DNA of 62,344 nt from Candidatus Bathyarchaeota archaeon. Lineage in GTDB: Archaea > Thermoproteota > Bathyarchaeia > Bathyarchaeales > DTEX01. Of the stretch, positions 6,516-42,638 are shown piece by piece. Below the pieces are notes generated by a model. The model was not told the DNA's origin and ran no database searches. It saw only the letters and a program-made list of their open reading frames with translations. The position numbers were made by a program, and so were the translations under genes. The stretch lies in NCBI GenBank assembly GCA_018396655.1, contig JAGTQF010000005.1, positions 1 through 62,344 of the forward strand, read 5' to 3'. Numbering within the stretch: position 1 is the stretch's first letter; every line of letters starts with the position of its first letter.

Positions 6516-7756
6516 GTTTATTTAAGGGGGCGGTTAGCGTGGAGCCTGTGACATTTGGTTTGGTTGGTGTTGGAGGCTACGCCACTGTTTACCTAAGGAT
6601 TTTAAGGGCCTTGGAGAATGAGGGCTTAGCAAGAATTTCCGCAGTGGTTATAAGGAGCCCTGAAAAGTATCCAAAGGAAGTAGAGTATTTTAGAAGTAGG
6701 GCCACGACCATTTACAGAAGCTACGATGACATGATTGATGCTGAACGCGGCAGAATAGATATAGTGGCCCTCCCCACGGCTATACATCAGCATAAGGAGA
6801 TGACTATAAAAGCCCTTATGAGCGGCTTTAATGTTATAGTTGAGAAGCCTCCAGCCGTAACAATACAGGACTTAGATGAGATGATTGAGGCTGAGAAAAA
6901 ATCGGGAAAGTTCTGCGTTGTAGGCTTTCAGCTGCAATCAAAGACCGTGGTCCAAGGTATTAAAGAGACTATATGTGAAGGGAAAGTGGGCGATGTAAAA
7001 TATGTTTTGGCTAAGGGTAAGTGGAAGAGGCTCGACTCCTATTATGAGAGGAATGCTTGGGCCGGCAAATTTATGCATGAGGGAAAATATGTTTTAGACG
7101 GAACTGTAAGCAATCCATTATCTCATTATTTAATGAGCTCGCTCTTCTTCGCAAGTATGGAGAGGGGGCGGGCAGCCTACCCAATAAGGGTTAGGGCTGA
7201 GCTTTATAGGGGGCATAGGATAGAAGGCGAGGATACTTCATGTCTCGACGCTGAAGTTGATAGTGGGGCACACGTTTTATTCTTCGCTACCCTTTGCAGC
7301 CCCTCCGAGAGCAGACCCTCACAGAGAATTATTGGGACTAAAGGTACTATTGACTGGACATTCGGAAATAACGCCTACATAAAATATGCTGATGGAAGCG
7401 TGGAGGTAATAAAGGAGGATGGAAAGGATGAGCGTATGGAGCTTTTCCGGAACACTATCAGATATCTTAGAGGGTTAGACGAAAACATTAATTGCACACT
7501 TGAATTAACCCGCCCATTTGTACTTACATTGAACGGCGCATATGAGTCGGCTAAGAGAATAAAACAGATTCCAGACAAATTCATAGTTAGGCAGGCGGAA
7601 GGCGGCTCCATGGCTACAATAATATTGGGCATAGATGATATAATTGATAGGGCATTTGAGCAAAAGCTGCTGTTCTCAGATCTTGGTGTGGAGTGGGCTT
7701 ATAAAACAGACTACTTCCCGCTCAAAAATTATAAATGCTTCAGCTTAACACCGTAG
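6512..7756 (+). CDS. Gfo/Idh/MocA-family NAD(P)-dependent oxidoreductase
   Basis: 414 aa. N-terminal Rossmann FGLVGVGGYA and VEKPPA motif. 4-nt overlap with the upstream gene. Confidence 0.7.
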   Translation: MSLFKGAVSVEPVTFGLVGVGGYATVYLRILRALENEGLARISAVVIRSPEKYPKEVEYFRSRATTIYRSYDDMIDAERGRIDIVALPTAIHQHKEMTIKALMSGFNVIVEKPPAVTIQDLDEMIEAEKKSGKFCVVGFQLQSKTVVQGIKETICEGKVGDVKYVLAKGKWKRLDSYYERNAWAGKFMHEGKYVLDGTVSNPLSHYLMSSLFFASMERGRAAYPIRVRAELYRGHRIEGEDTSCLDAEVDSGAHVLFFATLCSPSESRPSQRIIGTKGTIDWTFGNNAYIKYADGSVEVIKEDGKDERMELFRNTIRYLRGLDENINCTLELTRPFVLTLNGAYESAKRIKQIPDKFIVRQAEGGSMATIILGIDDIIDRAFEQKLLFSDLGVEWAYKTDYFPLKNYKCFSLTP

Positions 7757-7772
7757 TTGTGGAGAGGTACCT

Positions 7773-8591
7773 ATGAAAATATGCATAGTTACTGATGAGG
7801 TTAGCTCTGACCCGGAAACCGCTATGGAGCTCATATCCGACTGGGGAGTAAAATATATTGAAATAAGGGCCGTCTGGAGAAAAAGAGTTCCAGACATAGA
7901 ATCTTATGAGATTAGGCGATTGCTGGATTTAATCTCGTCATACAATGTGAGAGTTGCCGCCATATCGCCCGGCGTTTTTAAATGTAGGATTGATGACGAG
8001 GCGACGGTTATGAAGCATCTAAATGAGAGGCTCCCACGCTCCATCGAACTAGCGGAGGCTTTGGGAACAAACACCGTGATAGTTTTCGGCTTCCTCTGCG
8101 ATGATCCGAGCAATAGGAAATATTTCCATTATGCCACCGAAATCTTGAGGAAAGCTTCAGATTATGCCGCTGAGAGGGGAATTATGCTTGCACTTGAGAA
8201 CGAGCCCTTTAGCCTAGCCGATACTGGGGAGAGATCAGCCAATCTCGCCAGATCGATTGGAAGGGAAAATTTAAGATTAAATTGGGATCCCTGTAATGCA
8301 TACGTCTCTGGCGAGCTACCTTCCGAAGGCTATAAACATGTTAGGGATCTAGTGGCGCACGTTCATTTAAAGGATGTCGTTATTGATCAGGGGTCTGGTA
8401 AGAAGATTTATGTACCCTTCGGTGACGGGGAAGTTGACGTCTTTAGTCAAGTGAAATATTTAGTGAACGATGGTTACAGAGGCTTCTTTTCGATCGAGAC
8501 GCATATGAGCAAAAACCGCGTAAAGGGCACGTTTACGTGCTTGAGGAGGCTTCAAAGCCTTATTGAAGAGCTGGGCGAGAAAACTGAATAG
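7773..8591 (+). CDS. xylose-isomerase-like TIM-barrel protein (sugar phosphate isomerase/epimerase)
   Basis: 272 aa. LALENEP, NWDPCNA, HVHLKD, SIETH metal-ligand pattern typical of the AP_endonuc_2 fold. Confidence 0.7.
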   Translation: MKICIVTDEVSSDPETAMELISDWGVKYIEIRAVWRKRVPDIESYEIRRLLDLISSYNVRVAAISPGVFKCRIDDEATVMKHLNERLPRSIELAEALGTNTVIVFGFLCDDPSNRKYFHYATEILRKASDYAAERGIMLALENEPFSLADTGERSANLARSIGRENLRLNWDPCNAYVSGELPSEGYKHVRDLVAHVHLKDVVIDQGSGKKIYVPFGDGEVDVFSQVKYLVNDGYRGFFSIETHMSKNRVKGTFTCLRRLQSLIEELGEKTE

Positions 8592-20367: not shown

Positions 20368-22260
20368 CTAGGAAGATATTTTCCCAAGCTTCTCAAGTTC
20401 ATCGGCAACGTAACTTAAGCCTAGATCTTCCAGCTTCTTTCTAGTTGGCACACCGGTTTTAGCATCCCAGCCTCTCGCAGCATAATAATCATCTAACAGC
20501 CTGTCAAGCTCAAATATCTGACCTCTTGCGGGATCCCTTGGGAACGGCACCTTCTGCAGCCTTTCAGGCAGCCAGTCATCCTTCCTCGTCATCCCCTCCC
20601 TAACGTTGAACGCCCTCTCAACATTATATACTCTCTCACCAACAAGCCAAATATAACCAGGATCCTTGAACTCTTCTATCCCAGTGGCGGCATATAGAAC
20701 CTTTCCCATCCACTCCATAGTCTTCTCAACGTTGCCGTAGCCAGCGGTCTGGACGAGCTCAGCGAATGCACACCAGCCAGCCGCCTCAAAGGCTGCTATT
20801 TGATCCTGAACCCTCTTCGCCAGAACGCCCTTACCCTCAACAGTTAATGGATCAACTTTCTCAGGCATACCGAGTATCTCGTACTTATTCCAGCCTATCA
20901 TATGGCTTCCGCCTATATTTGAGGTTGCGTAGCTCAGCCCATGAGCCTTTGCAGCTCTCGGATCATAGGCCGGTAGCTCAAGGCACTTGCTATGCATGGC
21001 GAACTTCTCGGCGCCTCTACCTATAATCTCAGCCGCCCTAGCGGTGCCTTCAGCCAATATGTTGCCTATGCCCTCCCTAAGGGCAATCTTCCTAACCAGC
21101 TCAACCATAGCGTCTCCGTCACCCCACCTCAACCTTAAGCCGTCAGTCTCCCTATCAGTTAATATGCCCTTCTCATATAGCTCCATAGCGAAGGCAACTA
21201 TGGCGCCAGTAGATATCGTATCAAGCCCATACTTATCGCAGAGCATATTAGCGTATGCTATAGCCTCAAGATTCGTAATCCCGCACGTTGACCCAAGGCT
21301 CCAGTGAGTCTCATACTCCGGGAAGTCCCAGAGTAAACCTGCATATGGACCCTTGGTTAGCTTCCATTTCTTGCCGCATGCTATCATACAGGTAAAGCAA
21401 CCATAATGCTTAATAACATACTTCTCAAGAACCTCAGTTCTCCAGATCTCAGCATTCTCCAGCTCAGTATTCTTAAAGTTGTAGGTTGGATTATGCCCCA
21501 AAGTATAGAACTGATAGACTACCGAGTTTGTGCCAAGGCTGTGGAAGGCGTCGAAGAGCGGGCTCCTCTTATATACGTCAATCTGCTCCTTCACAAGCTC
21601 CCTAAAGAGATCCTCATTAAAGAGCTCTGGCTTTTTGGTGCCAAGCGCAACTATAGCCTTAAGATTCTTAGAGCCCCATATGGCTCCCCCTCCGCCCCTT
21701 CCAGGGGTCCTGTAATCGTCCGTCACAAGGCAAGCTACTCTAACAAGTCTCTCACCAGCCGGACCGATAGCTAGAACCCTAGCATTCTTATCCGTCTCCT
21801 CTCTAAGAATTTCTGTAGCCCCATCAACCGTAGCTCCCCAAACGTGGCCAGCATCCCTAAATTCAATGTCGTCATCATGTATCCAGACATATGTGGGCTT
21901 CTCAGCTCTACCCTCAATTATTATGGCGTCATAGCCAGCGGACTTAACCTCTGCAGCAAAGAACCCTCCACCAGTAGATCTAAAATATCCACACGTTAAG
22001 GGAGACTTAAACATGGCGAAGGTTCTATGGAAGCTTTGAGCAGCCGTCCCCGCAAGGGGGCTAAGCGCTAAAATCATCTTGTTTTCCGGGCATAAAGGGT
22101 CGACTCCCGGCTTAACCTCGTCCCACAGTATCTTAGCCCCAAAACCCCTAGCGCCTATAAAGTCTCTGGCCATATCATATGGCAGTTCAATCTTAACAGC
22201 GGATCTATGGGTCAAATCCAGCCTAAGTATTCTGCCAGCGTAACCATACAATTTTCCCAT
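20368..22260 (-). CDS. aor: aldehyde:ferredoxin oxidoreductase (tungstopterin AOR family)
   Basis: 630 aa. N-terminal GYAGRILRLDL and typical AOR_N/AOR_C layout, with Cys ligand region CFTCMIAC. Confidence 0.9.
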   Translation of the reverse strand: MGKLYGYAGRILRLDLTHRSAVKIELPYDMARDFIGARGFGAKILWDEVKPGVDPLCPENKMILALSPLAGTAAQSFHRTFAMFKSPLTCGYFRSTGGGFFAAEVKSAGYDAIIIEGRAEKPTYVWIHDDDIEFRDAGHVWGATVDGATEILREETDKNARVLAIGPAGERLVRVACLVTDDYRTPGRGGGGAIWGSKNLKAIVALGTKKPELFNEDLFRELVKEQIDVYKRSPLFDAFHSLGTNSVVYQFYTLGHNPTYNFKNTELENAEIWRTEVLEKYVIKHYGCFTCMIACGKKWKLTKGPYAGLLWDFPEYETHWSLGSTCGITNLEAIAYANMLCDKYGLDTISTGAIVAFAMELYEKGILTDRETDGLRLRWGDGDAMVELVRKIALREGIGNILAEGTARAAEIIGRGAEKFAMHSKCLELPAYDPRAAKAHGLSYATSNIGGSHMIGWNKYEILGMPEKVDPLTVEGKGVLAKRVQDQIAAFEAAGWCAFAELVQTAGYGNVEKTMEWMGKVLYAATGIEEFKDPGYIWLVGERVYNVERAFNVREGMTRKDDWLPERLQKVPFPRDPARGQIFELDRLLDDYYAARGWDAKTGVPTRKKLEDLGLSYVADELEKLGKISS

Positions 22261-27266: not shown

Positions 27267-29534
27267 CTAGGACTCCTCTGCGAGGATTCTATCCACCACG
27301 AACTGCCTTAGATCTTTAGATAGGCTAGCGAAGTAAGCGCTGAAGCCCGTTACACGCACTATCAGATCAGGATACTTTGATGGGTCCTTATGGGCTTCAA
27401 GTATCTTCTCTTTATCAATAACATTCATGTTAATCATTGTTCCACCCAGCTTGAAATGTCCAAGTATTAAGGCTTTAACGATCTCTTTGCCATTTTTTCC
27501 TCTGAAAACTGTTGGATCAATGTCTAATTGTAATGGCGCCGTGTTTCCATAACCACATTGTATTGCCGCGACAGCTATGGCTAGTGATGTTGGGGTGCCA
27601 CCAAACCCCGGCTCGGGATTAGCCCCCTGCGATATCGGTGCGCCTGCGCGCCGCCCGTTCGGTGTCGCACCAACCCTTTGGCCCATGGAGAGCATGCTTG
27701 CCCAGGAAAAGAGCCCTGGAATAATGTTGTATCCTTTAGGCGTCGGCTTCTCTTTAACCAGTCGAACAAATGTTTTAGCGATTTTAACCGCCCATTCATC
27801 GGCGTGAGTCCCGCCTTGTCCATAGTGCGGTATGTTACGCAGCATTAACCGGATATATTCATTCCTAAAGTTGTTTTTAAGCTCCTCGGCGAGCTCCCTC
27901 CACGAAATCCTTTTCTCTTTTTCTACCCTTAATTCTATGGCAGCGAAAGAGTCGGCTACGGTGCCTATGCCGGCCCCATCTAGACATAAATTATAGTATT
28001 CGACTCCTCCGTGAGATGCATCTAGACCTTTCTCTATCGGGCCGTAGCAGAGAAGATCTAATACTAGCTCGGGGAAAACCTTATGCATATTTTCCATGTG
28101 AAAATCTAAACCTTCTCGAACAATATCTATCGCTTTTCTTAAATGTGTCTCGAATCGGCTCCATAGCTCCTCAACGCTCGGATTAACGTTCGGATCACTC
28201 ATCATTTCCCAAAATGCAACCTCGAAGACTTTAGCAAAATTAATTTTGACGCAGTCTTGTAAGGCGTATTCTTTTCCCGGAATAGCAAACCAGTGACAAC
28301 CAGAGTAGGCTCTTTCACGTGCAAGCTCAACTGAATAACCGTTCCTCATAAAGCCCTCTATTAATGCGTCGCCGCCCAGGAATTTCGGGAAACCCATCTT
28401 ATCTTCAAGCATTATTTCTATGCCTCTGTCCAAGAGCCTTGGATCTAAACCCTCCCAAACAAATATCCCTATATTAGCTGGCGCTTTAAGTCTGTGAACA
28501 GCCTCTAAGACAAGATATGAGAGCTTATTTGTGACATCTTTACCGCTAGCATCCGGTCCGCCAAGCTGATAGTATTGTGTATCATTTAAAAACAGGCATG
28601 CGAGGTGGAAAATGGCTTCTTCATCAGTTAATATGCCGGCGGCCACATCACGCTCATAGAATGGTTTAAGCCACACGTCGATTCTCCCCATAGAGCCGCT
28701 TCCATTATACATTCGGGCAATCATTTGATACCAAGCTGTCCACTGGCAAGCTTCCCAGAATGTTCTAGGCGGCTCATTAATTAACCGCTCATTTATATCG
28801 GCCAGATCTTTTAAGTTCCTGCGTAAAGTTGGGTTTCTCTCTTTCTCAGCGAGCTCCCTAGCCGCCTTAACATGTCTAGCTATCCATTCCTGAACCCCGA
28901 TAACTACGCTCTCCAATCCGTCGTAGAATTCTGCTGCCTGAGGATTAATCTCCCGATAATAGCGTATTTTCCTCAGTAATCCTCCCCAACCAAGGCTGAA
29001 GCCTATCTGCATATCTTGGCAGAAATGCTGAACTGCGCCTACGCCTGGGTAAATATCGTATTTGCTCCAAGCCTCCACTAAATGCTGTGGTGGGGAAAGA
29101 TCCGGATTCCAATGCGGGTCTCGGTAGCTCATAAAATAGGCCATATAGCCGCCAAGAATAGAGCTAAAAGGATTGATGTAAACCGGATGCGAGGAAAGAA
29201 ACAATCTGAAGTTTTCTCCGCAAATCTTCGGCCCAAAAAACCCTCCACTCGGGTGATTGCTTATAGGCTTAAAGTTATTTAATTTCACATCTCTAACCGG
29301 TTCACCTGAAGGCCCCATGTACTCGACTATTTCTCTGAGCTCGGGTGGTGGAAGAAGTCTCCCGTGATCATCCTGGTCCATAATGCCAATAACTTTCTGT
29401 TTCTCATGAGTATGCTTCATCTTTATCTCTCGTAGAATCTCCAATCGTTCACTGAAAGTTAGCTCCTCATTTAGTTTATTCAGCCTTTCTAAAAATGTAC
29501 TGGGGTCCTCATAAATAATGAGGTTACTTTCCAT
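27267..29534 (-). CDS. glycyl radical enzyme (PFL-like, substrate unknown)
   Basis: 755 aa. C-terminal TPNGRRAGAPISQGANP ... LIVRVTGFSAYF glycine-radical motif. Cys loop candidate YSGC(413)HWFAIPG lies ~317 aa upstream of the radical Gly. Confidence 0.9.
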   Translation of the reverse strand: MESNLIIYEDPSTFLERLNKLNEELTFSERLEILREIKMKHTHEKQKVIGIMDQDDHGRLLPPPELREIVEYMGPSGEPVRDVKLNNFKPISNHPSGGFFGPKICGENFRLFLSSHPVYINPFSSILGGYMAYFMSYRDPHWNPDLSPPQHLVEAWSKYDIYPGVGAVQHFCQDMQIGFSLGWGGLLRKIRYYREINPQAAEFYDGLESVVIGVQEWIARHVKAARELAEKERNPTLRRNLKDLADINERLINEPPRTFWEACQWTAWYQMIARMYNGSGSMGRIDVWLKPFYERDVAAGILTDEEAIFHLACLFLNDTQYYQLGGPDASGKDVTNKLSYLVLEAVHRLKAPANIGIFVWEGLDPRLLDRGIEIMLEDKMGFPKFLGGDALIEGFMRNGYSVELARERAYSGCHWFAIPGKEYALQDCVKINFAKVFEVAFWEMMSDPNVNPSVEELWSRFETHLRKAIDIVREGLDFHMENMHKVFPELVLDLLCYGPIEKGLDASHGGVEYYNLCLDGAGIGTVADSFAAIELRVEKEKRISWRELAEELKNNFRNEYIRLMLRNIPHYGQGGTHADEWAVKIAKTFVRLVKEKPTPKGYNIIPGLFSWASMLSMGQRVGATPNGRRAGAPISQGANPEPGFGGTPTSLAIAVAAIQCGYGNTAPLQLDIDPTVFRGKNGKEIVKALILGHFKLGGTMINMNVIDKEKILEAHKDPSKYPDLIVRVTGFSAYFASLSKDLRQFVVDRILAEES

Positions 29535-34555: not shown

Positions 34556-34772
34556 AGTGATCCGGGCCTCTAGCCTTTTTTGTAGTGATGATACGCCATT
34601 TATAGAGATAAGATTTTTGTATAAAGTGTTTAAACATATTCTAACTTAACACAATCCGCACAAATCTGCTGAGATGGAGGTCAACGTACCGTGAAGATAA
34701 AGCCTTAAAGCCTAAAAGTTTTTATTTTAGGAATTTAAGCAGGCAGATAGTTTTCGTTCCGGGGCTAGATCT

Positions 34773-35630
34773 ATGATATTAGGCTTAGATGTGGGCGCCA
34801 GCTTCGCCAAAGCGATTCTCGTAGACGAGAATCTTAAGATCATTGAGAAGCAAATTCTGCCAGTGGAAGACCTGAAGACTGCGGCTCTAAGAACCCTAAA
34901 CTCCTTCATTAGGAAAATTGATGAGGAACTTAGAGGTCGAATAGGGGTTGTTGCGGCGTCGGGCGGGGGCTCAAGGTTTATTGGTGAAGAAGCCTTCGGT
35001 TTACCAGTTAAGCGAATAGATGAGATAACTGCTATAGGTCTAGGGGGCCTACTGCTGGCTAATAGGGATGAGGGTTTGGTTGTCAGCGCCGGGACCGGGA
35101 CCGCTATCGTTGCCGTATATAATGGTGGAAGAACTATTAAGCACGTGGGTGGAACCGGTGTCGGCGGAGGCACAGTTCTCGGCCTTTCACGGAGACTTTT
35201 AGGCTTATCCATCTTTGAAGACCTAGAGAATATGGCTTTAAAGGGGGATGCTGGGAGAGTTGATTTAACCGTCGGAGATATAGTTGGCGGGCCGATAGGT
35301 ATTATTCCAGCGGACGCAACAGCCTCAAACCTTGGGAAATTAACATGCAAGTCTAAAGCCGAAGATGTTGCCGCAGGGATCTTTAATATGGTTTCGCAGA
35401 CGATAGGGGTTTTAGCGGCCATGGCTGCCAAAGCATATGATCTGGAGAACAGCATAATTCTCGTCGGGATGCTTCCCAAAAGTAAAATAGTGTCCAAGAT
35501 AATATGTGAAACTATTAAGATGTTCGGCGCAGAAGTAGTCGTGCCCGGCGACTGCGAATATGCCAGTGCGCTTGGCGCCGCCGCATCAATCTATCGGCAA
35601 TTTGATAGCCTTCATGCCCAAACTCGCTGA
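34773..35630 (+). CDS. coaW: type II pantothenate kinase-like (actin-fold ASKHA kinase)
   Basis: 285 aa. Collinear by eye with S. aureus type II PanK: GLDVGASFAKA, ASGGGS, EITAIGLGG, VSAGTGTAIV...VGGTGVGGGTVLGLSRRLL, GDAGRVDLTVGDI, ASALGAA. Confidence 0.75.
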   Translation: MILGLDVGASFAKAILVDENLKIIEKQILPVEDLKTAALRTLNSFIRKIDEELRGRIGVVAASGGGSRFIGEEAFGLPVKRIDEITAIGLGGLLLANRDEGLVVSAGTGTAIVAVYNGGRTIKHVGGTGVGGGTVLGLSRRLLGLSIFEDLENMALKGDAGRVDLTVGDIVGGPIGIIPADATASNLGKLTCKSKAEDVAAGIFNMVSQTIGVLAAMAAKAYDLENSIILVGMLPKSKIVSKIICETIKMFGAEVVVPGDCEYASALGAAASIYRQFDSLHAQTR

Positions 35631-35706
35631 GGAAAGCATAGGCGTAAAGTTTAAAAGTTTAGTCATATTGAATTCTTCGATGTTTAATTAGAGGTGAATT
35701 CGGCTT

Positions 35707-36249
35707 TTGACCCTTAACACGCTGCTTGAAAGGAAAACCCAAGTACTTATTGAGCTAAGAAACTATAAAGTTCTAGGAAGGGAGGAAGTTAAGGATGGCA
35801 TACTGACCGAGGTTGAGGATGTCGAGGGGAAGAAGATACTTATCTGGACAACCTCGATAACCGATGCTATAGGCGTTAAACATGTTAATCAAATGGCGAA
35901 ATATATGAGCTCAAAAAATATTGAGAACGGCATAATAGTCAGCGAAAAATACACGCAGTCAGCCAAATCCCTAGCTCGAAAAAACAATATTGAGCTAATT
36001 CCACAAGATTTTCCATCATTTAACATATTTAAGCACTATCTAGTTCCAAAGCATGAAGTCCTCTCACCTGAGGAGAGAAAGGTCGTTTTAGAGAAGTATC
36101 GTATTGAACCATACAAGCTGCCGCGCATAAAAACCTCTGATCCAATTATACGGGTTATTGGGGCGAAGCCCGGCGACATAGTGAAGATAACTAGGCGCAG
36201 TCCAACGGCCGGAGAGAGCGTCTACTACCGTTATGTTGTCGAAGGTTGA
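35707..36249 (+). CDS. rpoH: RNA polymerase subunit H/Rpb5 homologue with ~100-aa N-terminal extension
   Basis: 180 aa, TTG start. The C-terminal [69 protein letters not shown] is classic RpoH. Confidence 0.85.
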
Positions 36250-36250
36250 A

Positions 36251-36487
36251 TTAAATAAGCTTACCCTTAGCCTTCCCCCTCAGCTCATATAATATGACTA
36301 GAGCTTCTCCTAGAGGAATACCTAGCCTCGCAGCAAGCTCTCTAGGCGATATTTCAGGCTTCTCTCGAAGTATCTTCTCCTCAACATAGGTCTTATGGTA
36401 CCTGTACATTATCATTGAATGGACTGTTTCGACAAGTATAGGCCATAATGGGTCATTCACATACTTACTCAGATCATCCTCCTCCAT
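36251..36487 (-). CDS. small hypothetical protein with C-terminal HTH-like segment
   Basis: 78 aa. ISPRELAARLGIPLGEALVILYEL. Confidence 0.35.
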   Translation of the reverse strand: MEEDDLSKYVNDPLWPILVETVHSMIMYRYHKTYVEEKILREKPEISPRELAARLGIPLGEALVILYELRGKAKGKLI

Positions 36488-40709: not shown

Positions 40710-42638
40710 TTAAGCCTTTTTAAGTTCCTCTAAGAGCTTCTCCCTCAAGATCTTGTTAACGGTCTCCGGCTTAACCCTGCCTCTCAGATCTCTCATTATT
40801 ATGCCCATCAACGCTCCGAGCGACCCAATTCCTCTCTCTACAACCAGACTCCTATTTTTCTCTATATACCCATCTATCAGCGTCTTTAAGTCATCATCCG
40901 ATATCATAGTTAATCCGAGCTCTTTTATAGCGTCGCTTGGAGTAGCCTCTTCATGCTCTGTAAGCCACTTAATTATTTCAGGTATCGCCTCCTTAGATGT
41001 CTTCTCTAAGCCAACAAGCCTGAACGCCTCAATTATCTTCTCATCGGGTATAGCGTCAAGGTTCACTCCCTCCCTCCTTAAAGCCTTAAATGTCTCCGTG
41101 AGCGTCGCAGCCACAAACGTCGGCGCAACTCCAGTCTCCTTAACTATTACCTCAAAGAGGTCGAGATACTCGGAATCAGAGAGCTGTCTTGCAAGCTTCT
41201 CGTTTATACCATATTTTTCCATTAATCTTCTCACGGTGACATCTGGCGGCTCCGGCAATTTCTCTTTTAATCGCTCCAGGTAATCGCGGGTTATTTTTAC
41301 TGGCGGTACATCTGTTTCAGGGTACATTCTAGCGGCTCCAGGCCTCGGCCTCATATACCTTGTTGTGCCATCGGGATTGGCTGCACGCGTCTCCTCCGGA
41401 ACCCCTTTTAATGCTTCACGAGCTCTTTCTATGACAGCCTTTAGGGCGTCCTTGGCGTTCTCAATTTTATCAGCGACCAGAACGATAGCATCCTCCTCAG
41501 AGGCGTTCATCCTTCTCTTTAATTCAGATATCTCCTCCTCTGAAACGCCGTAGGCTCTAAGCTCATCCGTATGGAGTATCCCTCCAACCCTACCCCAGAA
41601 CTTCGCCCTATCTGATAGTTCGCCGCCGAACCTTAAGCCTGGTATAAGTTCGAGGCCTAGCAGACCGGAGAATTTTGGTAGCTTAACGGCTAGCACTCTT
41701 CCATCTCTACTTATAGCTCTTTTAAGTACCTGACATTTGGTCCCCGTAAAAATCTCTGTAACGTCGAAAATCTCTTCTTTTAGGTCTTTCTCTTTCACTC
41801 CTCTCCTTATTAGCTCGTCACGGATCTTTAGAAGGTTTATTTGGCGCTGGACCTCATACTCAACAACCTTAGAGATCAGTTCAAGCTCCTGGACGCCTTT
41901 TATCTCAACTAGGGCGCCGCCTCTAATAGATATATTCAGGTCTTGTCTTATCGTTCCAATGCCACGCTTAACTCTTCTTGTAGCCCTCAGTATTCTGCCG
42001 ATTGCAAGAGCAACCTTCTCAGCTTCCTCCGGCGTATTTATCACTGGACCTGTTGTGACCTCAACAAGGGGTATGCCAAGCCTATCAATTCTATATCGCA
42101 CTAGGAGACCATCCTCACCCATCTTTCTCGCAGCATCTTCCTCAAGACTTATATGCTGTATAGGTATAGTCTTACCATCAACTTTTATCGAACCATTCAA
42201 TGCGACGACGCAAGTTCTTTGAAAGCCAGTTGTGTTTGACCCGTCTATAACTATTTTACGCATAACATAGATCTCATCCACTGGCTTGGCATTCATCATA
42301 AGCGCTATGATTAGAGCTATTTCCAGAGCCTCGCGGTTAATCTCGTGGGGCGGCTCCTCATCCATCTCCACAAGGCAGGACGTCTCGCTGTTTGCTTCAT
42401 AAAGAATCTTCACACCCTTCTGGAACTCAAAGTAGGCTGCTGGATCTATTTGACCGAGTTCACTCTGCGTCGGCCTTAGTCTCCGGAGAAACGTTATTTC
42501 CGGGTCGCCCTTAAAAAGCTGAGGCTTACATTTACAGAAGAGCTTCTCCCGCGTTGCAAGCTGCTGGTGGCATTCTAAACCAACTTTAAGATCAAGCGCG
42601 CCATAATCAATCTTCATTAAATCTACCCCCGAATCCAT
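40710..42638 (-). CDS. gatE: Glu-tRNA(Gln) amidotransferase subunit E
   Basis: 642 aa. LKVGLECHQQL and GatB/E core plus C-terminal YqeY-like tail. The true start may be Met-8 (MKIDYG). Confidence 0.9.
   Translation of the reverse strand: MDSGVDLMKIDYGALDLKVGLECHQQLATREKLFCKCKPQLFKGDPEITFLRRLRPTQSELGQIDPAAYFEFQKGVKILYEANSETSCLVEMDEEPPHEINREALEIALIIALMMNAKPVDEIYVMRKIVIDGSNTTGFQRTCVVALNGSIKVDGKTIPIQHISLEEDAARKMGEDGLLVRYRIDRLGIPLVEVTTGPVINTPEEAEKVALAIGRILRATRRVKRGIGTIRQDLNISIRGGALVEIKGVQELELISKVVEYEVQRQINLLKIRDELIRRGVKEKDLKEEIFDVTEIFTGTKCQVLKRAISRDGRVLAVKLPKFSGLLGLELIPGLRFGGELSDRAKFWGRVGGILHTDELRAYGVSEEEISELKRRMNASEEDAIVLVADKIENAKDALKAVIERAREALKGVPEETRAANPDGTTRYMRPRPGAARMYPETDVPPVKITRDYLERLKEKLPEPPDVTVRRLMEKYGINEKLARQLSDSEYLDLFEVIVKETGVAPTFVAATLTETFKALRREGVNLDAIPDEKIIEAFRLVGLEKTSKEAIPEIIKWLTEHEEATPSDAIKELGLTMISDDDLKTLIDGYIEKNRSLVVERGIGSLGALMGIIMRDLRGRVKPETVNKILREKLLEELKKA

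Follow-up and report, generated by a model that had tools for sequence, protein, structure and literature searches.

The subject of this work is a gene for the RNA polymerase (RNAP) subunit Rpo5, also called RpoH, which lies at positions 35707-36249 of a 62,344-nucleotide (nt) stretch of DNA from a Candidatus Bathyarchaeota archaeon (assembly GCA_018396655.1, contig JAGTQF010000005.1), hereafter the window. According to our analysis, hot-spring Bathyarchaeia probably possess a two-domain Rpo5/RpoH, in which the universal assembly domain is joined to a dead Mrr-type domain that would be the counterpart of the jaw of eukaryotic Rpb5. The N-terminal jaw module of Rpb5 has been regarded as eukaryote-only, and archaeal Rpo5 has been described as having no N-terminal extension (PMC1802627, PMC2675907, PMC3906176, PMC3424549). 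In the full-text literature, including work of 2026 on the evolution of archaeal RNAP subunits and on archaeal domain classification, we found no description of a long archaeal RpoH/Rpo5, subscription-only papers being outside this coverage. The long Rpo5 contradicts the textbook statement and is relevant to the archaeal roots of the eukaryotic polymerase, while what we propose for its function and its orthology is inferential. The gene and its two domains are as follows:

35707..36249, plus strand: long form of rpoH/rpo5, 180 amino acids (aa), TTG start, TGA stop
35707..36015, plus strand: N-terminal domain, residues 1-103, a catalytically inactive Mrr-type PD-(D/E)XK fold, equivalent to the Rpb5 jaw
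36016..36246, plus strand: C-terminal RpoH/Rpb5 assembly domain, residues 104-180 (PF01191, NF007129)

That the first ~100 aa are coding is clear. Among 5.8 billion clustered proteins, 187 significant homolog clusters were retrieved; among the best 120 of them nearly all are 175-200 aa long, and those with a name are Bathyarchaeia/Bathyarchaeota. In an alignment of 33 sequences (45-91% identity) the N-region contains four invariant residues (R18, Y20, G56, E96) and eight near-invariant ones (K10, L14, K65, Y82, T83, A90, L97, P99), with a mean pairwise identity of 45% for the N-domain versus 67% for the C-domain. The full protein matches Pfam Mrr_cat (PF04471) with 29.5 bits, over the cut-off of 21, and when the N-domains of the family were scanned alone all 24 matched Mrr_cat (best E=1e-12). 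Also, the N-domain matched below threshold NA-iREase1 (PF22722), a family of inactive restriction endonucleases (REase). AlphaFold 2 (AF2) predicts a confident a-b-b-b-a-b-a-b fold, with a predicted local distance difference test (pLDDT) of 94 for the N-domain alone; for the full-length model the pLDDT is 90 and the predicted template-modeling score (pTM) 0.76. The classical Mrr domains found in the same search, which carry GADGGVD...VQCK, served as reference for the catalytic columns. The columns of the catalytic Q and K are occupied in the family by W47 (28 of 33) and I/V/L/T49 (K in 0 of 33), and the acidic columns by variable hydrophobic residues (I/T/V, L/F and so on). Judged by these columns, the N-domain is a catalytically dead Mrr-type PD-(D/E)XK domain, within the fold superfamily of the Rpb5 jaw, which is itself a dead nuclease domain (PMC3424549). 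An active nuclease tethered to RNA polymerase could be imagined from the Mrr_cat match over the cut-off, but the D...D...QxK positions are lost and the "inactive REase" family is matched as well; we give this explanation practically no chance, and it was dropped.

Several comparisons bring this N-domain close to Rpb5. When an N-only profile was run against the PDB (177,635 distinct sequences), the top 7 matches were all eukaryotic Rpb5 (E 1.2e-5 to 4e-3) and no non-Rpb5 match appeared below 0.03; profile positions 25-90 align with Rpb5 residues 52-117. The first-pass annotation of this open reading frame (ORF) had proposed, by eye, a collinear alignment with yeast Rpb5, and the collinearity was reproduced both by phmmer, which follows solved eukaryotic Rpb5 chains from query residue 53/54 through the C-terminus, and by hhalign, which pairs yeast 78-125 with window residues 43-91. 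In hhalign, eukaryotic Rpb5_N and the Bathyarchaeia N-domain match at 95.1% (E=3e-8, 48 columns), the eukaryotic alignment being of 5 sequences. All the sets compared (eukaryotic, archaeal and Mrr) are homologous, and discrimination between them is weak. The conserved (Y/F)T.(S/A)AK turn of the N-domain corresponds to the ITPSAMK turn of Rpb5. The AlphaFold superposition suggested in the first-pass annotation gave a consistent picture: with the full-length model, Foldseek ranked first 34 whole Rpb5 chains of eukaryotes and African swine fever virus (ASFV), with E 2e-15 to 2e-11 and a query-normalized template-modeling score (TM) of 0.65-0.78, most of them 0.73-0.78, over ~200 columns. TM with short archaeal Rpo5 chains reaches up to 0.38. 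Since the superposition extends over whole chains, both domains and their mutual packing, the latter as predicted, superpose on Rpb5.

The protein is not, as had been stated, a "full-length" Rpb5. Its N-domain has 103 aa compared with ~140 in eukaryotes, and is therefore ~40 residues shorter; the first eukaryotic helix is missing, and so is the insert at approximately yeast residues 45-75, seen as a gap in the alignments, which is located after the first strand region and before the LW(V/I) strand. Nevertheless, superfamily-level homology with Rpb5 is established, and so is the identity of architecture. Its position, its fold and the sequence similarity that can be detected make it most likely that the N-domain is the counterpart of the Rpb5 jaw. 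In this sense, the eukaryote-like two-domain organization initially claimed stands as regards architecture, fold superfamily and position, while we infer the orthology of this fusion with the eukaryotic one, and a shared origin of the two is plausible but unproven.

Residues 104-180 form a genuine RpoH/Rpo5 domain, and the RpoH domain that had been called unmistakable at ~105-180 of the 180-aa ORF is amply borne out. Residues 105-177 match Pfam RNA_pol_Rpb5_C (PF01191) with E=3e-33 (113.8 bits versus a cut-off of 23.5), and the NCBIfam RpoH equivalog NF007129 scores residues 104-179 at 116.5 bits, above its cut-off of 83. The nearest solved chains are the Rpo5 of Thermococcales and Sulfolobales, at 53-60% identity (58-60% for Thermococcales). 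In yeast, H147, P151, D182, R200 and R212 were genetically shown to hold Rpb5 on Rpb1 (PMC1802627). Their equivalents H110, P114, D145, R163 and R175 are invariant in the 33 homologs; the offset of 37 residues was confirmed by the alignment with 1dzf, to which the yeast sequence used is 100% identical.

Some results weigh against our proposal, and they concern both the likeness to the jaw and the place of the protein in the polymerase. Pfam PF03871 (RNA_pol_Rpb5_N), the model with which the first-pass annotation expected the relationship to be checked, matched neither the window protein nor any of the 24 family N-domains at E<=10. Under its gathering threshold of 27 bits, it reached 17.8 bits in P0189 and 24.5 bits in P0216, divergent relatives both, and only there. 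The failure is partly, not wholly, due to the model omitting the best-conserved stretch, GI(I/F)V...(Y/I)T.SAK: it has 89 positions and covers residues 10-81 of the eukaryote-like P0216, ending near helix 2. The profile-profile comparison cuts both ways. It pairs Rpb5_N with the Bathyarchaeia N-domain, as reported above, but pairs Rpb5_N about equally well with classical Mrr (95.3%, E=2e-8), and the Bathyarchaeia N-domain is far nearer to Mrr (99.4%, E=2e-21) than to Rpb5_N. When the isolated N-domain model was submitted to Foldseek, NucS/EndoMS came first (E=2e-6) and Rpb5 next (2e-4 to 1e-3), with MspJI and LlaBIII behind Rpb5; structure alone is therefore no proof of orthology with Rpb5. 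AF2 may also have learned the inter-domain geometry of Rpb5 from its training data. As regards the genome, rpoB was not found within 10 kb of the gene in the window, in locus L001 or in 80 Bathyarchaeia loci. Additionally, in a 2026 paper a "Bathyarchaeota" Rpo5 has an accession two numbers away from that of Rpo1 (PMC13257274), which hints at an operon-linked rpo5 copy in at least one metagenome-assembled genome (MAG).

P0216 (191 aa, on a 2-kb Logan contig) is in itself a compact eukaryote- or virus-like Rpb5, which the archaeal N-profile matched with E=4.5e-6.

A search with the N-profile hidden Markov model among 1.84 billion representative proteins gave 517 matches at E<=1e-3. About 30 of the top 150 clusters (50% identity) combine the N-domain with an RpoH C-domain, and several more are N-terminal fragments. 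One divergent two-domain cluster, P0170 (188 aa), is named Heimdallarchaeota, and its 90%-identical relative P0435 is named Kariarchaeaceae, a family placed by NCBI taxonomy in the kingdom Promethearchaeati, Asgard group. The architecture thus occurs in Kariarchaeaceae. The P0170 gene is likewise apart from rpoB, in agreement with the report that Asgard str-cluster cores begin at rpoA1 (PMC10833476). The Kariarchaeaceae-like N-domain aligns in hhalign with eukaryotic Rpb5_N over 94 columns (yeast 10-126) with E=6e-10, nearer than either the Bathyarchaeia N-domain (3e-8) or Mrr (2e-8), and it is less Mrr-like than the Bathyarchaeia N-domain (2e-15 versus 2e-21). These values are suggestive of a gradient in sequence from Mrr through the Bathyarchaeia and the Kariarchaeaceae-like N-domains to Rpb5_N, though the alignments are thin.

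Related fusions were also noticed. P0166 (481 aa) and P0176 (436 aa), from the same search, carry two or three tandem dead Mrr-like domains ahead of the RpoH C-domain, a "multi-jaw" version. P0441 (142 aa) has the RpoH C-domain behind a different, SAP-like-looking N-terminal module (LKYRELLKICKEEDIPRKGRKVEIIRRLAG), which suggests that the RpoH N-terminus repeatedly gains DNA-proximal modules. In another family of ~190-250 aa (P0158, P0163, P0173, P0185, P0195, P0202, P0208, P0240 and P0245), the same dead Mrr-like N-domain is followed by a Cys-rich C-terminal domain, CG.IP...C.G...C.IR..SDNA.FH, which replaces RpoH_C and had no Pfam match.

An alternative explanation for the likeness to the jaw is a convergent fusion, in which an Mrr-like domain was joined independently to archaeal RpoH and resembles the jaw because both were drawn from a common PD-(D/E)XK pool; such a domain may act otherwise, for instance in sensing modified or foreign DNA at the polymerase. 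The much closer proximity of the N-domain to Mrr_cat than to Rpb5_N and the first place of NucS in the N-only structure search speak for it. So do the other N-terminal modules found on RpoH, tandem Mrr repeats and the SAP-like motif of P0441, their variety making the RpoH N-terminus a fusion hot spot. Yet convergence would have had to reproduce the domain order, the junction and the predicted inter-domain packing of Rpb5, with both N-domains catalytically dead, and Rpb5 is the only match in the sequence space of the PDB. Moreover, the architecture exists in an Asgard lineage, and the Kariarchaeaceae-like N-domain matches Rpb5_N over 94 columns better than Mrr does. We regard a convergent fusion as unlikely. 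Our more specific proposal, which we hold tentatively and which may or may not prove right, is that the joining of a dead Mrr-type domain to RpoH took place in archaea and predates eukaryogenesis, that all Bathyarchaeia, Kariarchaeaceae and other uncultured lineages have retained the fusion, and that eukaryotes inherited and elaborated it, so that the architecture of Rpb5 would descend from such an archaeal fusion.

The other alternative concerns the status of the protein as a polymerase subunit: it could be a non-polymerase paralog, with a canonical short RpoH encoded upstream of rpoB serving the RNAP. The position of the gene apart from rpoB-rpoA in all loci, the accession numbering in PMC13257274 and the existence of tandem long paralogs in another lineage (L086/L087) would fit such a situation. 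But the C-domain lies above the RpoH equivalog cut-off, keeps every Rpb1-contact residue and is 58-60% identical to Thermococcales Rpo5, and a gene outside the rpoA cluster is also what is described for Asgard rpoH (PMC10833476). Furthermore, each short Bathyarchaeia RpoH that we inspected is the same gene truncated, as described below; no distinct short Bathyarchaeia rpoH surfaced among the 8 short entries inspected and the loci viewed, which are not whole chromosomes. Three complete Bathyarchaeia chromosomes each show one RpoH cluster among the 120 matches listed in a C-domain-only search. A non-polymerase paralog is thus very unlikely, and we continue to treat the long protein as the Rpo5 of these archaea. 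As for the tandem paralogs, they lie at 7001-7564 and 7639-8193 (187 and 184 aa), both with an Mrr-like N-domain and Rpb5_C, in contigs of up to 591 kb.

The first-pass annotation treated the long form as a single odd ORF; it is instead the standard form of Bathyarchaeia. A scan of one genome per GTDB species gave 80 best-match loci, all matched from query residue <=9 to >=178, and both domains are found in one uninterrupted frame in 80/80 of them. Of these loci, 78 are labeled Bathyarchaeia/Bathyarchaeota and two carry bacterial labels. The nearest one, L002 (92% identical), belongs to a hot-spring MAG, and the window sequence itself was found in many hot-spring metagenome runs. The two bacterial labels belong to L061 (DATKLC010000100.1) and L064 (DASPTR010000162.1), typical Bathyarchaeia long rpoH genes under Krumholzibacteriaceae and Acidoferrum MAG names, respectively, and these contigs are probably mis-binned.

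This two-domain layout is hidden in Bathyarchaeia by truncated database annotations. The C-domain-only search showed many NCBI Bathyarchaeia RpoH entries of 81-86 or 114-118 aa. Eight short entries were inspected, of which one has 115 aa and the other seven 82-86 aa (P0321 in L006, P0322 in L010, P0324 in L012, P0361 in L045, P0326 in L084/L085, P0342 in L083, P0334 in L091 and P0345 in L092), and all eight are the C-terminal part of a long frame carrying the N-domain. The extended frames of L083, L084, L091 and L092, the four scored, match the N profile with E about 1e-38. The four annotated starts that were read are ATT twice, ATC once and an internal TTG, and P0361 begins from an internal Met, a tally that leaves out P0321, P0322 and P0324. 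In 5/5 re-fetched loci, ~540 bp of falsely "intergenic" DNA is left upstream of the short rpoH; the NCBI rpoH annotations of this kind include those at 6001 in L083, 5964 in L084, 880 in L085 and 4001 in L092. OGD57471.1 (81 aa) is likewise cut, other members of its cluster having 182 aa. In the controls, Hadarchaeales (79 aa) and Nitrosotalea (83 aa), rpoH starts from ATG with 5-18 codons of open frame upstream, and in the control loci L089 and L090 it stands directly upstream of rpoB-rpoA.

The long ORF 35707-36249 is real, and its start and transcription are supported by the following elements of the window:

35650..35656, plus strand: TTTAAAA, candidate archaeal TATA box read from the sequence, in the 76-nt gap behind the upstream gene
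35690..35697, plus strand: Shine-Dalgarno (SD)-like AGAGGTGA, 9 nt ahead of the TTG start
35690..36300, plus strand: metatranscriptome contig of run X14, 611 nt, 98% identical, with the whole long ORF and little else
35905..35907, plus strand: internal ATG (Met67), start of the automatic gene call P0027, 114 aa

Behind a TGA at 35695-35697, the reading frame opens just three codons (9 nt) 5' of the TTG. More than 20 orthologous Bathyarchaeia loci have GAGGT or GGTG at -6 to -10 of the TTG that heads the long frame. This, together with an N-region conserved in 80/80 loci, upholds the TTG at 35707 as the start, as already preferred in the first-pass annotation over an internal one. An internal start, by which the cell would make a canonical RpoH of ~80-115 aa, with the part ahead of it left untranslated or made as a separate product, has in its favor the products of 81-86 or 114-118 aa given by gene callers and in NCBI. 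However, those starts are ATT, ATC or a non-conserved Met, with no SD motif, whereas the long frame is headed by the conserved TTG and SD, and the N-region is kept as protein in 80 species with differences that are third-position-biased; we find this explanation hardly credible. In the case of Met67, the SD motif is absent upstream and the Met is not kept in the homologs of the 33-sequence alignment. The window's own gene call P0027 is a truncation.

Regarding expression, the X14 contig reaches from the SD motif to 51 nt beyond the stop codon and leaves the upstream gene essentially uncovered. It differs from the window at 13 positions: 9 of the 12 differences in sense codons are at third positions (counted from the listed positions), two first-position changes give V28I and I32V, and the stop codon changes from TGA to TAA. 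The contig fits a monocistronic mRNA of the long ORF, evolving under purifying selection, its ends not being mapped transcript ends and DNA carry-over being possible. The candidate TATA box, which can only be inferred from the sequence, lies 34-40 nt 5' of the 5' end of this RNA contig. The raw-read metatranscriptomes X22-X24 put 2 reads only on the locus, too sparse to inform.

In the window, rpoH has as neighbors a Fumble-type pantothenate-kinase-like gene (34773-35630, plus strand) and, on the opposite strand, a small winged helix-turn-helix gene and a ChsH2-OB/thiolase pair; the rpoH of L001 has similar coenzyme A (CoA) and mevalonate neighbors. A 256-aa ORF at 34727-35497 (minus strand), of low complexity and rich in P/S/A, runs antisense to the Fumble-type kinase gene and is most likely a shadow ORF. 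Elsewhere in the window, on the minus strand, we found an aldehyde:ferredoxin oxidoreductase (20368-22260), a glycyl-radical (pyruvate formate-lyase-like) enzyme (27267-29534) and a GatE-type amidotransferase subunit (40710-42638). They represent ordinary content of an anaerobic archaeon, consistent with Bathyarchaeia.

If the long protein is incorporated into RNAP, its C-terminal 77 residues would clamp onto the largest subunit (Rpo1/RpoA), and the N-domain would most likely sit next to the assembly domain, at the lower rim of the channel for downstream DNA. That rim is lined by the Rpb5 jaw in Pol II; in Sulfolobus, where the jaw is missing, a positively charged groove lies open next to Rpo5 and is the docking site of Rpo13 (PMC2675907). 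In this sense, the most economical reading is that the Bathyarchaeia N-domain fills the locus held by Rpo13 in Sulfolobales, where it may offer downstream DNA and/or docking factors a non-catalytic surface. The C-domain is basic (isoelectric point, pI, of 9.7) and the N-domain near neutral (pI 7.9), so it is not obvious that the N-domain on its own would bind DNA strongly through electrostatics.

A conserved and expressed two-domain Rpo5 in an entire abundant archaeal class, and in a Heimdall-group lineage, means one eukaryote-specific RNAP feature fewer, and it offers a concrete precursor for the jaw, namely an inactivated Mrr nuclease domain. It also predicts a different surface for downstream DNA and factor docking in these polymerases. 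If a pre-eukaryotic fusion is true, the graded similarity series would trace the origin of the lower jaw of Pol I/II/III. On the practical side, the annotation error is systematic, with starts forced to ATT, ATC or an internal Met to fit the length of the short family, and it touches comparative studies that use RpoH as a marker.

Four known systems can be compared with the Bathyarchaeia protein. The canonical archaeal RpoH/Rpo5 (Sulfolobus, Thermococcus, Methanocaldococcus; 75-90 aa) is orthologous in the C-domain, with 53-60% identity, but lacks the N-domain and is encoded directly upstream of rpoB-rpoA, whereas the Bathyarchaeia gene is long and detached. Mrr_cat (PF04471) and NA-iREase1 (PF22722) are the best sequence-family matches of the N-domain, with the same topology and the RGY, VGV and (F/Y)T..A motifs in common. 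Compared with the Mrr_cat enzymes, the N-domain does not have the catalytic D...D...(Q/E)xK and is joined to a polymerase subunit, not to DNA-recognition or NTPase modules. Rpo13 of Sulfolobales, which sits in the groove next to Rpo5, a place taken in part by the Rpb5 jaw in eukaryotes (PMC2675907), is a likely functional analog of the N-domain for downstream-DNA contact, although it is an unrelated protein of the helix-turn-helix type that forms a subunit of its own. Finally, Rpb5 (RPABC1) and its homologs in ASFV and other nucleocytoplasmic viruses have the same two-domain order as the Bathyarchaeia RpoH, and Rpb5 shares with it identical Rpb1-contact residues in the assembly domain, a dead PD-(D/E)XK N-terminal domain and the collinear (L/I)W...VG(V/I)K...GI(I/F)V...(I/Y)T(P/Q)SAK. 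The Bathyarchaeia N-domain differs from that of Rpb5 in being shorter, in failing PF03871 and in lying nearer in sequence to Mrr nucleases, and it is at the level of architecture that the two proteins are equivalent.

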